DNA of 64,000 bases, taken from the NCBI RefSeq assembly GCF_000027125.1, contig NC_017626.1. One strand, given 5' to 3'. The notes under the pieces were generated by a model. That model was given only the letters and a program-made list of their open reading frames with translations, was not told where the DNA came from and did no database searches. Origin of the DNA: Escherichia coli 042 (GTDB lineage: Bacteria; Pseudomonadota; Gammaproteobacteria; Enterobacterales; Enterobacteriaceae). The position numbers and the translations under genes were made by a program. Below, one piece after another: positions 40,592-63,367 of this stretch. The stretch's first letter is position 1, and every line of letters begins with the position of its first letter.

Positions 40592-41986
40592 CTACTCTCT
40601 CCGTTCTGGCAATCTAAAGTTAATCTTTTCCACATTAACAATATGGTGATTAACCCTGTCGATATCGACGGAGCTTTGCCCTCTTTCATTCACCGCATGA
40701 ACATTTGCAAGAGACAGCAGTGTTTCTTTTTTCGCCATAAAGACGCCGCGAACGTCTTTGCGCATGTCGAAGTTCATGCTCAATGCGGGTCCAACAGAGG
40801 ATTCCTGCATCACTTTGATATTTCGTATAAAAAGATGTTGCGGTTTGTTGTGTAACTCCAACGAGGCACGCTTCATCTCAATGTTAGTCAGTGCAACAAA
40901 GGAGACAGCATTCCCGGCAGAGATTTGGATACCGCGCAATTTGTAAGCAAGGTGGGTGTTATCCAGCTGAATATTATTCACTCGGAAATTTTGCGGTATC
41001 GAGAGATATTTGCCTTTAATTACCCCATAACCGATTAACATCCCGGCGCTATTAATCATTTCAATATTATCAATCACGAAATTGTCACAACCGTAAATAG
41101 CGACCGTGGCGTTATCAATACCTGCTTTCTTACTGAAATCCGGCGTGATATTGCGGGCTTTGATATTACGAATAACAAAATGTTTACCATTTTCAACATG
41201 GATCAGTTGTCGACAATCCGATCCCGTGATATTCGCCACGACAAAGTTTTTCACTGCCTGGTCTTCCGGGTAGTTATTATCATAAGTACTCCCCGCAAGG
41301 CCTATGCCGATTCCCCAGTTGATTTTGCCGTTGGTACAGTTGATGCGCTCGATGATGTGGTCGGAGATCAAAATATCACTGTCGTTAATCGCCACGTTCC
41401 ATTCAATGGCGTCCCCCTGTAAGTCGCTGAACTTACAATTGGTGATGTTGGCACCGATAATCTGGTTATGAAATCCCTGACGTAAGATGGCGTAATTAGC
41501 GTGGCTGACAGTGAGGTTATCGATGGTCAGGTTGCGCATGACCCGTTTGTTTTTGCCGCCGATATAAATCTGCGTTACTGGGCCAAAGCCGCTCATCGCC
41601 AGCCCTTTGATGGTGCAGTCAGAGCCGCGCACATCCAGGGTGATGTTATGCATACTGCCGCCCTCCTCCCCTGTCACCTGGCTGCCGTCTTGTAAGACAA
41701 AACGCCCTCTGCCGTTGCCGCGCAGGCTTCCAAGGATGTGTAACGTTTTGCCAGGAGGAATGAAGATGCCGGTGTTGATATTTTCACAAACCAATCCGGC
41801 AGGCACGACGACCGTTTGCCCTTCGCTGAAGGCTTGTTTAAATGAAGCAATCCAGTCGTGTGGGTTGTAGTCGTTAATGTTAACGCTTTGCCGGGCAGGA
41901 AGTGCTCGGGCGAAAGGCGTATGAAGGAAGGCAAGCGCCGAGCTTACCGTCAGGAAAGTGCGTCGGGAGAGTTTTTTAAATGGCAT
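40592..41986 (-). CDS. wcaM: Colanic acid biosynthesis protein WcaM, 464 aa
   Basis: Length identical to K-12; Tat-like signal (SRRTFL); last gene of the cluster. Confidence 0.9.
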
Positions 41987-41996
41987 ACGTTCTCCT

Positions 41997-43217
41997 CTAT
42001 AAAGCTTGCAGCAAGCTGGCGAGTTCTCGATTAATCACCTGCTGGTTAAAATCATGTTCGACTTTTTCGCGCGCACGTTTGATAACCGGAGCCAGTTCGT
42101 CGGTGTCCAGTTGGCTAAACGCCGCCAGTCGTTGCGCCAGTGCACGGGCATCGTTCTCAGGCACCAGCCAGCCGGATTTGTCAGCCTCCACCAGTTCCGG
42201 TATTCCGCTATGCAGAGTAGAAACCACCGGAATGCCGACCGCCATCGCTTCCATTAGCGCCACCGGAATGCCTTCCATATCACCATCCGCACCTGTAACC
42301 GATGGCAACAGGAAGACATCCGCGTCGTCGAGCATCGCTTTCACTTCGTGGCTCGGTTTAAAGCCCGGCATCTCCACCACATCTTCCAGTTGATATTGTT
42401 CGATGAGGGTGCGCAGGCGTCGTTCCCACGGGCCAATGCCGAGGATGCGATAGCGAAATGCCACGCCCTGCTCTTTCAACTGACGGCAGGATTCGATCGC
42501 CACATGCAGGCCTTTTTTCTCGGTTAAGCGTGCGACGGAGATGATTTCCAGCGGTATTGCGGGCGCTTTCACCGGACGCGGGCTAAAACGCGTCATGTCC
42601 ACGCCCATGCGCGATACGGCAATTTTTTCCCTCGGGCAGCCCATTTTTTGCAGCCTTCCGGCCCAGAGATCGCTGATCGGTAGCATCAAATCGCCACGGC
42701 GAAACAGTTGCTGATATTCGGGGGTGTAGTGGTTGAGCACTTCCCGACTGGAGATATCAATGCCGTGGAAGATAGTAGCGATTTTGCCGCGAATGACACC
42801 CAGTTCCCGTAGTTTTGCTGCGGTTACCCCCGCCGGGCCAAAATGAGCGATGAACACATCGGCATAAAATGGTGTTGCGACCTGGCCGCAAATGGCAGAC
42901 AAAATCAGGTTCCGCGACTCGGCACCATAGCGTTTGAGGTTGAGCGCCTGCCAGGTATTTTTGCGATGAATGCCGCGTAAGGTCTGGCTGGCGCGGTGGC
43001 GCAGCTTCGCCACTTTGCCCGTAGGTTCGTCCTGTAACCAGCGGGTTCTGGCGGCAAGGTTGTATTTCGTCCATGCCGCGTGGGTGTTTTGTGTGTCGCC
43101 TTTTTGCAGCGCGACAATCTCCACCTCAAATCCCATATCAATAAACGCAGTGATTTGGTTGAGAACGAAGGTTTCCGACGACAGCGGAAATTTCAGTAAA
43201 AAGAAGCCGACCTTCAT
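41997..43217 (-). CDS. wcaL: Colanic acid glycosyltransferase WcaL, 406 aa
   Basis: Length and order as in K-12. Confidence 0.9.
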
Positions 43218-61778: not shown

Positions 61779-62222
61779 TTATACCTGCTCTGCGTTCAAT
61801 GCCTGCGCCCACTGGCGGGCAGACCGTTCAAGTAATGTGTACACCGCTGCAAACGTTTCCCGGCTTTTGCGATATGGATCGGGGATTTCACATTCGTTAT
61901 CCCAGTGACCAAACAGCATCACTTTGCCGCGCATCTCAGGTGCCATCTCGCATAAGCGTTCGATATGGCGCTTTTCCATGGTCAAAATCAGGTCGTAGTT
62001 GCGACACAGGCTGCGGCTGATTTGACGGGCACAGTGACCTTCCAGAGACAGTTGATGTTCTGCGGCGACGCTGATAGCGGTAGGATCAGCGCCCTTACCG
62101 ACCAGCGCGCCGAGTCCAGCGGACTCCACTTTCAGCTCCGGGTGATAACGTTGCAGTAAGCGTTCCGCCGTCGGGGAACGGCAAATATTGCCGACACAGA
62201 CAACTAATATGTTGTTAAACAT
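61779..62222 (-). CDS. wzb: Low-molecular-weight protein-tyrosine phosphatase Wzb, 147 aa
   Basis: N-terminal CVGNICRS P-loop; length. Confidence 0.9.
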   Translation of the reverse strand: MFNNILVVCVGNICRSPTAERLLQRYHPELKVESAGLGALVGKGADPTAISVAAEHQLSLEGHCARQISRSLCRNYDLILTMEKRHIERLCEMAPEMRGKVMLFGHWDNECEIPDPYRKSRETFAAVYTLLERSARQWAQALNAEQV

Positions 62223-62227
62223 GACGA

Positions 62228-63367
62228 TTACCAGTTATGAATGTCGCTGGCTGTATCCGTCATGTAACGGACACCGCTAATAGTTGGCAGCAACTGATTG
62301 ATCAGACGGTTCCAGCGGGAAACCGGTGCGGTGGTGACATACACCACGTCATAAGGTTGCAGGCGGAATTCTGTCGCCATCACCAGCGACGTCGCATCGG
62401 ACATATCCAGCTGATAGATATTGGCAATCTTGCCGTTACGCCCGCCCTCGCCTTTCAGCGGACGAATGACAAAGATGCCGCTGGCGTTGGAGGTGGTCAT
62501 GTCGATGCCTTCAGCATTGCCCAGGGCTTCAGTCAGGGTCATACCGCTAAAGTCCATTTTCAGGGTGCTCTGTTTCTTCACTTCACCCATCACAAACACT
62601 TTCAGATCATCATTACGCGGCACGTAGAGAATATCGCCAGGATAAAGCAGTCGGTTCTGATTGAGGTCGCCGTTTTGCATCAGCGCCTGCAAAGAAATGC
62701 GTTCTTCACGACCATTGTGTGTTAGCACCACGTTGCGCCAGTCAGCGGTGTCGGTCAGGCCACCTGCGGCGTTGATGGCGTCGAGAATGGTCAGTGGTAC
62801 GTTGGTGATCGCCTGTTGACCGGATTTATTCACCTGACCGGAGATATACGCTTTTTGCGAGCGGAAGGCGGCGATATTAACGTCCACCTGCGGGTCAGCG
62901 ATGTACGTCGCTAAGCGCCCGGTAATATCACTGCGGATTTCAGCGAGCGTTTTCCCCACCACGTGAACTTTGCCGATATACGGGTAGAACATGGTGCCGT
63001 CAGGCTGTACCCAGTTGCCGGTGTCGCTGGAGCTGCGGTACTGACCGGCTGGCGTGGTGAGCTCCGGGTGATCCCAGACGGTGACATTAAGAACGTCCCC
63101 CGGCCCGACGCGATACTGGTAATTCGCGATCTCACTTTCCAGCGTCATATTGGGGCGCGCTACGTTGGGTCGTGGACGTAATTGGTCAATCAGGCGCGGG
63201 GTCAACGGATAAACATTCACCATTTTGTCGAGATCGAAATCAGCGTCCTGCTGTTTGATGACGTCTTTGCCCATCGTCGACATATTGCTGCCCGGAAGTA
63301 CTGTGCAACCGCTTATCAAGGTTACTGACACCAATAATGGCATCAATTTCATTTTGGATTTCATCAT
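62228..63367 (-). CDS. wza: Outer membrane polysaccharide export lipoprotein Wza, 379 aa
   Basis: Lipoprotein signal ([10 protein letters not shown]); length; first gene of the cluster. Confidence 0.9.

Follow-up and report, generated by a model that had tools for sequence, protein, structure and literature searches.

We interpret positions 40592-63367 (minus strand) of the window, the 64,000-nucleotide stretch of Escherichia coli 042 DNA analysed here, as the standard E. coli colanic acid (M-antigen) operon, intact and in its usual place beside galF and the O-antigen locus, a reading to which we assign a probability of about 0.97. Twenty genes in one orientation follow the K-12 order wza-wzb-wzc-wcaABCDEF-gmd-fcl-gmm-wcaI-cpsB-cpsG-wcaJ-wzxC-wcaKLM, both when they are taken gene by gene and in a single collinear alignment to MG1655. 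The cluster extends from the initial base of the wza ATG (63367) to the final base of the wcaM stop codon (40592), both on the minus strand. Its galF and O-antigen side is present in the window. At the other end the window stops 26 nt short of the expected yegH start, in a wza-yegH spacer that is 98% identical to that of K-12, and public contigs identical to the window run on into a TerC-family gene, annotated as yegH in RefSeq. The genes are listed below from the wcaM end with their nucleotide identity to K-12, all alignments being gapless, and their NCBIfam scores.

40592-41986, minus: wcaM, last gene of the operon; 464 aa; 93.98% to b2043, 14 aa differences; WcaM equivalogs NF007517 (1022.7 bits) and TIGR04004 (970.7 bits), above cut-offs
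41997-43217, minus: wcaL, glycosyltransferase; 406 aa; 95.41%; TIGR04005, 877 bits (cut-off 538)
43214-44494, minus: wcaK, pyruvyl transferase; 426 aa; 95.86%; TIGR04006, 925 bits
44770-46248, minus: wzxC, flippase; 492 aa; 96.89%; NF007773, 832.7 bits; recombination breakpoint near 45094
46250-47644, minus: wcaJ, initiating undecaprenyl-phosphate glucose phosphotransferase; 464 aa; 97.42%; NF007518, 986.7 bits
47699-49069, minus: cpsG (manB), phosphomannomutase; 456 aa; 95.77%; NF011943, 1054 bits
49171-50607, minus: cpsB (manC), mannose-1-phosphate guanylyltransferase; 478 aa; 97.01%; NF012004, 1115.6 bits
50610-51833, minus: wcaI, fucosyltransferase; 407 aa; 96.98%; TIGR04007, 894.9 bits (cut-off 800)
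51830-52309, minus: gmm (wcaH), GDP-mannose mannosyl hydrolase; 159 aa (160 from the ATG at 52312); 98.12%; NF011963, 325.6 bits
52312-53277, minus: fcl (wcaG), GDP-L-fucose synthase; 321 aa; 97.10%; NF047922, 550 bits
53280-54401, minus: gmd, GDP-mannose 4,6-dehydratase; 373 aa; 97.95%, 0 aa differences; TIGR01472, 587 bits
54428-54976, minus: wcaF, acetyltransferase; 182 aa; 0 aa differences; TIGR04008, 401 bits
54992-55738, minus: wcaE, glycosyltransferase; 248 aa; 95.98%; TIGR04009, 515 bits
55749-56966, minus: wcaD, colanic acid polymerase (Wzy type); 405 aa; 98.85%, 0 aa differences; TIGR04010, 873 bits
56941-58158, minus: wcaC, glycosyltransferase; 405 aa; 96.80%; TIGR04015, 894 bits (cut-off 785)
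58155-58643, minus: wcaB, acetyltransferase; 162 aa; 97.14%; NF007564, 358 bits
58646-59485, minus: wcaA, glycosyltransferase; 279 aa; 96.07%; NF007453, 653 bits
59614-61776, minus: wzc, tyrosine autokinase and co-polymerase; 720 aa; 97.23%; NF008568, 1515.7 bits (cut-off 1068)
61779-62222, minus: wzb, low-molecular-weight phosphotyrosine phosphatase; 147 aa; 98.87%; NF007520, 327 bits
62228-63367, minus: wza, outer-membrane polysaccharide export lipoprotein; 379 aa; 0 aa differences; NF011658, 729 bits

Pairwise alignment of all 20 genes with their MG1655 counterparts (wza to wcaM, b2062-b2043, NC_000913.3 2114502-2137243) gave equal lengths, no gaps and no internal stops, and the two strains have the same gene overlaps (wcaL/wcaK, wcaI/gmm, wcaD/wcaC and wcaC/wcaB). 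A single BLAST alignment joins window positions 39230-64000 to K-12, and all indels within the cluster are intergenic. The initial annotation had described a complete cluster, collinear with K-12 in the order and length of its 20 ORFs and free of insertions and frameshifts; the alignments bear this out for the genes, down to each of the lengths listed above. The comparison with MG1655 that it proposed as a search for missed lesions uncovered no frameshift, but it did turn up three small intergenic indels, of -3 nt between cpsG and cpsB, +1 nt between gmd and wcaF and +36 nt between wcaA and wzc. These account for the whole of the 34-nt difference in span (22,776 nt against 22,742 in K-12), and neither an IS element nor any other insertion was found within the span. 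Gene content, order, lengths and intactness are thus established here. At least 80% of window positions 40000-64000 lies in one contiguous place in 4,250 of 5,426 complete E. coli genomes. This is an ordinary cluster, as the initial annotation had stated, and an already known one, a textbook operon at its textbook location.

Family membership is established equally directly. Every one of the 20 proteins passes a curated NCBIfam cut-off with end-to-end coverage; for 14 the model is an equivalog named for colanic acid, and for the others it is an equivalog or subfamily model of a general kind. The match to K-12 is a matter of homology, not chance. It is also a match of architecture, that is of gene content, order and length, and not of sequence: identity to MG1655 ranges from 93.98 to 98.87% per gene and comes to 96.8% over the coding nucleotides (3.2% divergence), with the lowest value, 94%, in wcaM. 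The 20 genes differ from K-12 at 711 nucleotides and 76 amino acids, and they are under purifying selection (dN/dS 0.036 for the whole set, with no gene above 0.11). It is therefore very improbable that ORFs which look intact conceal a cluster in decay or without function, of the kind seen in some Shigella-like lineages. The 76 substitutions might be read in that way, but the low dN/dS is accompanied by a lack of stops, frameshifts and IS elements, by conserved promoter-proximal elements and by four proteins (Wza, Gmd, WcaD and WcaF) that are identical to those of K-12. Wzc differs from its K-12 counterpart at six residues, all at or before residue 488 and outside the C-terminal kinase domain, which carries no substitution.

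Three of the spacers carry recognizable elements.

44495-44769, no strand assigned: wcaK-wzxC spacer with REP/BIME-type repeats; 275 nt, as in K-12
49074-49123, minus: algC RNA motif directly upstream of cpsG; Rfam RF02929, 78.2 bits (gathering score 33.8)
59486-59613, minus: wzc-wcaA spacer with a REP-type hairpin element; 128 nt against 92 nt in K-12 (36 nt more)

The wcaK-wzxC spacer contains a direct repeat (44555-44645 and 44651-44754) and a match to naRNA4, a REP-derived RNA family of Rfam, at 44614-44684 on the plus strand (79.7 bits). The algC motif sits in the cpsB-cpsG spacer, whose 101 nt are the 3 nt fewer than in K-12 noted above; the same spacer measures 192 nt in the RefSeq O17-type strains ECA64, CB6837 and O17_K12a. 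By alignment, the REP variant between wzc and wcaA differs from that of K-12 and is identical to that of strain ECA64, and this spacer, taken as RNA, has a predicted fold of -36.6 kcal/mol (z = -2.4).

Upstream of wza lie 633 non-coding nucleotides that differ from K-12 by 11 substitutions and by no indel (98% identity). They contain one established element and one candidate.

63546-63584, minus: JUMPstart with ops (GGCGGTAGCGTG at 63557-63546) in the wza leader; Rfam RF01707, 57.3 bits (gathering score 35); identical to K-12
63806-63819, minus: candidate RcsAB box TAAAGAAACTCCTA upstream of the wza promoter; from sequence inspection; same sequence in K-12 at the corresponding position

The presence of JUMPstart/ops is established here. 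The sequence TAAAGAAACTCCTA at 63819-63806 is no more than a candidate for the RcsAB box of wza. A scan for an RcsAB consensus (TAAGAATATTCCTA, up to three mismatches) returned two matches against 4.04 expected by chance, both in the O-antigen region and none upstream of wza; our claim for this region is therefore limited to its identity with K-12. Consensus scans for promoters and terminators over 39200-64000 found no more sites than shuffled sequence would lead one to expect; the one promoter-like site found upstream of wza, at 63700-63673 on the minus strand, is a candidate only.

Could the locus instead be a group 1 capsule cluster of the K30 or Klebsiella type, with only wza-wzb-wzc in common with colanic acid? 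Group 1 loci have wzi as their first gene and carry serotype-specific transferases. The K30-type cps loci of E. coli and Klebsiella resemble the colanic acid system mechanistically, in Wza-Wzb-Wzc export and Wzx/Wzy-dependent assembly; Wza, Wzb and Wzc occur in both systems, and a further tyrosine-kinase model, NF007350, picks up the Wzc of the window as well. That match, however, stays below its cut-off (896.9 bits against 1248), whereas the cut-off of the Wzc model NF008568 is passed. Moreover, colanic-acid-specific equivalogs are passed by WcaA, B, C, D, E, F, I, K, L and M, every transferase is of the colanic acid type, and neither wzi nor any other ORF was found in the 633 nt upstream of wza. 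Judged from sequence, the capsule reading is refuted by the family cut-offs together with the collinearity with K-12, and we give it next to no weight.

What would a colanic acid operon of this kind do in the cell? Colanic acid forms a slime layer on E. coli. The K-12 system that makes it is a Wzy-dependent pathway, and the corresponding set of assembly and export proteins is complete in the window, with WcaJ, WzxC, WcaD, Wza (OPX), Wzc (PCP-2a autokinase) and Wzb (low-molecular-weight phosphatase) all above their family cut-offs. We infer the enzymatic roles, the regulation and the production of colanic acid by this cluster from K-12. By that analogy CpsG, CpsB, Gmd and Fcl would supply GDP-fucose, and WcaJ would begin the repeat unit on undecaprenyl phosphate, to which WcaA, C, E, I and L would add sugars and WcaB, F and K the acetyl and pyruvyl groups. 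WzxC would then flip the unit across the membrane, WcaD would polymerise it and the Wza-Wzb-Wzc proteins would export the polymer. Transcription would start upstream of wza under Rcs control, and RfaH acting at JUMPstart/ops would carry it through the 23-kb operon. The regulators rcsA/B/C/D/F and rfaH are located outside the window.

Superimposed on this conventional architecture is a mixed ancestry: the cluster is a homologous-recombination mosaic whose junctions are all in frame. A block of about 31 kb (window positions ~14210-45093), interrupted by a 1.3-kb patch, is near-identical to RefSeq O17-type strains and carries O-antigen genes of the O17/O44/O73/O77/O106 family, galF and the cluster from wcaM to the 3' end of wzxC. 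Compared with ECA64 and O17_K12a, the window shows four SNPs over ~14210-41506, 77 differences in the wcaM/wcaL patch at 41507-42807 (5.9% divergence) and just one over 42808-45093; from 45094 onwards, as far as wza, the divergence is about 2.3%. The near-identity over the first and third of these segments, shared also by CB6837, takes in the O-antigen genes, galF, most of wcaM, wcaK and the 3' end of wzxC. The breakpoints in identity to RefSeq strains accordingly fall at 41507, 42807 and 45094, and the O-antigen-proximal 4.5 kb of the cluster has a history different from that of the remainder. For the distal 18 kb (~45094 to wza) the best match reaches 97.8%, at least 2.2% away from every RefSeq complete E. 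coli genome in which the region occurs, and for the 1.3-kb patch the best match among 4,640 genomes is 96.4%. Large-fragment transfer spanning the O-antigen locus and wca genes has been documented (PMC3158064). We regard the mosaic as a tidy case of this known process: the O-antigen was exchanged when a large fragment recombined homologously, and one end of that fragment lies within the colanic acid cluster. It is conceivable, albeit unlikely, that the distal 18 kb and the patch represent alleles from a deep or under-sampled Escherichia lineage, and that the longer REP element in the wzc-wcaA spacer shifts the expression of export relative to synthesis genes; imported alleles or a REP effect, if true, would leave the identity of the locus unchanged.

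The lineage to which the distal part of the cluster belongs occurs in GenBank assemblies but in none of the RefSeq complete genomes. Contig JAWCXE010000010.1 (GCA_036599305.1) has one mismatch to the window over 31997-53217 and none over 49614-64000, and LR134238.1, LR134246.1 and GCA_037910345.1 contain the same mosaic. Across 31997-64000, each aligned block of these four has between 0 and 8 mismatches, and their O-antigen cluster is that of the window; independent GenBank assemblies cross all three breakpoints with 0-1 mismatches. The sharp jumps in identity to ECA64 and O17_K12a, between 100% and 94-98%, might suggest that the switches at 41507, 42807 and 45094 reflect a chimeric assembly and not recombination, but the mosaic recurs in all four of these assemblies and every junction is in frame within genes under purifying selection, which makes an artefact of this kind exceedingly improbable. 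A non-E. coli or chimeric origin, to which the 97.8% best RefSeq identity might point, was likewise rejected, since exact matches occur in four independent GenBank assemblies and the flanks share 98.7-100% identity with E. coli.

As a textbook operon in its textbook place the cluster is of little biological import, and its practical value is that of an indel-error control for this sequence. The initial annotation had presented the region as a control showing that the assembly is clean. Locally this stands: in LR134238.1 and LR134246.1, both long-read assemblies, gmd, wcaK, wzxC, wzy and manC are broken by insertions of one base in homopolymers, and within the cluster these assemblies differ from the window by such insertions only, whereas gmd, wcaK and wzxC, with homopolymers near 53417, 44114 and 44802, are intact in the window. 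Because the 20 intact genes cover sites that are frameshifted in two near-identical long-read assemblies, the intact 22.8-kb operon argues against indel errors here; on its own it is no proof for the assembly as a whole. GCA_037910345.1, for its part, aligns as if it lacked window positions 46157-46388, at the wzxC/wcaJ junction.

Eight long plus-strand ORFs of 186-334 aa lie antisense within the cluster. None has a Pfam match, and the largest have no counterpart ORF in K-12; we rejected them as genes and treat them as chance. On the coding strand, mechanically called ORFs exceed the genes through in-frame upstream starts in cpsG (472 aa, TTG), wcaD (424 aa, ATG) and wzc (732 aa, GTG). The K-12 ORFs are extended likewise, to the same 472 and 732 aa for cpsG and wzc and to 429 aa from a TTG for wcaD, and in all three genes the window conserves an ATG at the K-12 start position together with its upstream context. 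Whether gmm is counted as 159 or 160 aa depends on the choice of ATG within an ATGATG, a start context that is identical in K-12.

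Based on a gene-by-gene comparison with K-12 (MG1655, NC_000913.3), the colanic acid (wca/cps) cluster of E. coli 042, wcaM to wza on the minus strand of the window, is an ordinary and already known region. The K-12 annotation of 2100000-2140000 served as reference, and each gene from wcaM through wza was aligned to the window. The ORF listing contains 20 consecutive minus-strand ORFs in 40592-63367 of, in the order wcaM to wza, 464, 406, 426, 492, 464, 456, 478, 407, 159/160, 321, 373, 182, 248, 405, 405, 162, 279, 720, 147 and 379 aa. All 20 genes align with K-12 over their full length, without gaps and at equal length, which confirms the initial annotation's account of a complete cluster with K-12 gene lengths and order. 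In each gene the ATG and the stop codon sit where K-12 has them, with no stop in between, and the 24 nt before each start codon are conserved. Nucleotide identity ranges from 93.98% (wcaM) to 98.87% (wzb). Mechanically called ORFs are longer for cpsG (472 aa), wcaD (424 aa) and wzc (732 aa) because of in-frame upstream alternative starts and nothing else; those of K-12 are likewise extended (cpsG 472 and wzc 732, equal to the window, and wcaD 429 from a TTG). The two lengths of gmm, 159 and 160 aa, reflect an ATGATG start that is identical in K-12.

Window 39230-64000 and K-12 are covered by one collinear BLAST alignment. All indels within the cluster span are intergenic, and the earlier statement that insertions and frameshifts are absent holds for the genes themselves. 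The spacers differ from K-12 by -1 and -2 nt in cpsG–cpsB (49140, 49150), +1 nt in gmd–wcaF (54418) and +36 nt in total in wcaA–wzc (59497-59595), with a cluster span of 22,776 nt in the window and 22,742 nt in K-12. The extra length of the wzc–wcaA spacer (59486-59613; 128 nt versus 92 nt in K-12) comes from a different REP-type hairpin variant, which ECA64, an O17-type RefSeq strain, has in identical form; folded as RNA, the spacer yields -36.6 kcal/mol. The cpsB–cpsG spacer is 101 nt in the window, 104 nt in K-12 and 192 nt in ECA64. The cluster contains neither an IS element nor a foreign gene.

What do the encoded proteins indicate? All 20 match NCBIfam models end to end and above curated cut-offs. 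Colanic-acid-named equivalogs are matched by WcaA, WcaB, WcaC, WcaD, WcaE, WcaF, WcaI, WcaJ, WcaK, WcaL, WcaM, Wzc, Wzb and CpsB. For Fcl and Gmd the models are general equivalogs, for CpsG, Gmm and Wza they are subfamily models, and for WzxC the model is NF007773, an equivalog that bears the name 'MOP flippase family protein'. Relative to K-12 there are 711 nt and 76 aa differences over 22,179 coding nt (dS 0.133, dN 0.0047, dN/dS 0.036). Four proteins, Wza, Gmd, WcaD and WcaF, show no amino-acid change at all, and Wzc has six, none beyond residue 488 and none in the kinase domain. At the sequence level, this is the mark of functional genes kept under purifying selection. Intact frames and the low dN/dS make a cluster in decay very unlikely. 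The data also rule out a group 1 capsule locus, as the transferases are colanic-acid-specific, wzi is absent and the alternative kinase model scores under its cut-off. Antisense ORFs in the cluster were also considered; none matches a protein family, and in K-12 the largest ones are not preserved as ORFs.

Rfam places the following RNA and leader elements in the window, the last two at their expected places.

63546-63584, minus: JUMPstart in the wza leader, containing ops GGCGGTAGCGTG
49074-49123, minus: algC RNA motif immediately upstream of cpsG, 78 bits versus a gathering score of 33.8
44614-44684, plus: naRNA4, REP-derived, in the 275-nt wcaK–wzxC spacer
39230-39268, minus: second JUMPstart, ahead of the O-antigen genes
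16998-17072, minus: sRNA STnc240
19812-19935, plus: histidine operon leader

The algC motif is a strong match within the operon. Upstream of wza, 633 nt align to K-12 without indels and with 11 substitutions, none of them within JUMPstart/ops or within TAAAGAAACTCCTA (63819-63806), a candidate wza RcsAB box. Scanning for generic promoters and terminators yielded nothing informative. In related RefSeq strains a 49-aa hypothetical protein, WP_162829205.1, is annotated on the plus strand at window ~63676-63825, a stretch shared with the wza promoter and the candidate RcsAB box; the annotation is probably an artefact.

By analogy with established K-12 knowledge, Rcs-activated transcription would start upstream of wza, and RfaH acting at ops would carry it through the operon. 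CpsG, CpsB, Gmd and Fcl would supply GDP-fucose, and WcaJ would prime undecaprenyl phosphate with glucose-1-phosphate. The repeat unit would then be extended by WcaA, C, E, I and L, decorated with acetyl and pyruvyl groups by WcaB, F and K, flipped by WzxC, polymerised by WcaD and exported by Wza-Wzb-Wzc.

Beyond the initial annotation, the comparison adds only the small intergenic differences and a recombination mosaic, both well-understood phenomena. Region 24001-41000 (the end of the his operon, wzzB, ugd, gnd, the O-antigen genes, galF and the wcaM 3' end) is 100% identical to several strains with an O17/O44/O73/O77/O106-family O-antigen cluster. Mismatch maps against ECA64 and O17_K12a, a second O17-type strain, divide the window as follows.

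~14210-41506: 4 SNPs
41507-42807, wcaM 5' end and most of wcaL: 77 differences (5.9%)
42808-45093: 1 difference
45094 onward: about 2.3% divergence

A ~31-kb block (14210-45093; sbcB, plaP, his operon, wzzB, ugd, gnd, O-antigen cluster, galF and wcaM to 3' wzxC) is therefore near-identical to both strains, with breakpoints near 14210, 41507, 42807 and 45094 and flanks 1-2.3% diverged on both sides. The 1.3-kb patch at 41507-42807, inside this block, finds a best match of 96.4% in any RefSeq complete E. coli. Best matches in the same set reach 97.8% over 40000-64000, 98.3% over 50000-55000 and 97.8% over the distal 19 kb (45000-64000; 5,426 genomes searched). Exact matches to 45000-64000 are present in GenBank draft and NCTC assemblies, and so the lineage is merely absent from the RefSeq-complete set. 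From these segment-wise differences, the block, which takes in the O-antigen locus and the cluster's proximal 4.5 kb, and the distal 18 kb have separate histories. The mosaic follows a known mode of O-antigen exchange, in which large fragments extending into the wca genes are replaced by homologous recombination (PMC3158064). The junctions are all in frame, and the cluster genes therefore stay intact.

That the mosaic is a chimeric assembly is excluded by identical independent assemblies. JAWCXE010000010.1 (GCA_036599305.1) is 100% identical over 49614-64000, with one mismatch over 31997-53217, and the exact Wzc and WcaL proteins of the window occur in 156 and 170 public-collection blocks, respectively. 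The only differences of LR134238.1 and LR134246.1 from the window are single-base insertions, almost all of them at homopolymers (33617, 33951, 35686, 36309, 38427, 44114, 44735, 44802 and 53417), which look like long-read consensus errors. They split gmd (53417), wcaK (44114) and wzxC (44802) in the cluster, as well as wzy, manC and a glycosyltransferase gene; the window is intact at each, in direct support of the region as a control for a clean assembly. A close relative, GCA_037910345.1, aligns over 44651-46389 as if without window 46157-46388 (wzxC start, wcaJ end), its wcaK–wzxC spacer seems to contain one more REP unit, and neither wcaJ nor wzxC was called there; the gap may reflect a genuine deletion or a fault in the assembly.

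The neighbouring O-antigen cluster (31296-39130, minus strand; O17/O44/O73/O77/O106 family) contains wzx, wzy, manB, manC and two glycosyltransferases, has a low GC content (30-39%) and is 100% identical to several RefSeq strains. Between sbcB and plaP, yeeD/yeeE (tsuB/tsuA) are absent (15417-15490; 74 nt versus 1,520 nt in FDAARGOS_1058); 782 of 5,426 complete E. coli genomes have this junction, which is thus a common polymorphism. An Ag43 autotransporter gene lies in window 1-10000, together with a CP4-44-like island that includes an antirestriction gene, yeeS/T and a cbeA-cbtA toxin-antitoxin pair; the matching position in ECA64 is taken instead by a pdu (propanediol utilisation) operon.
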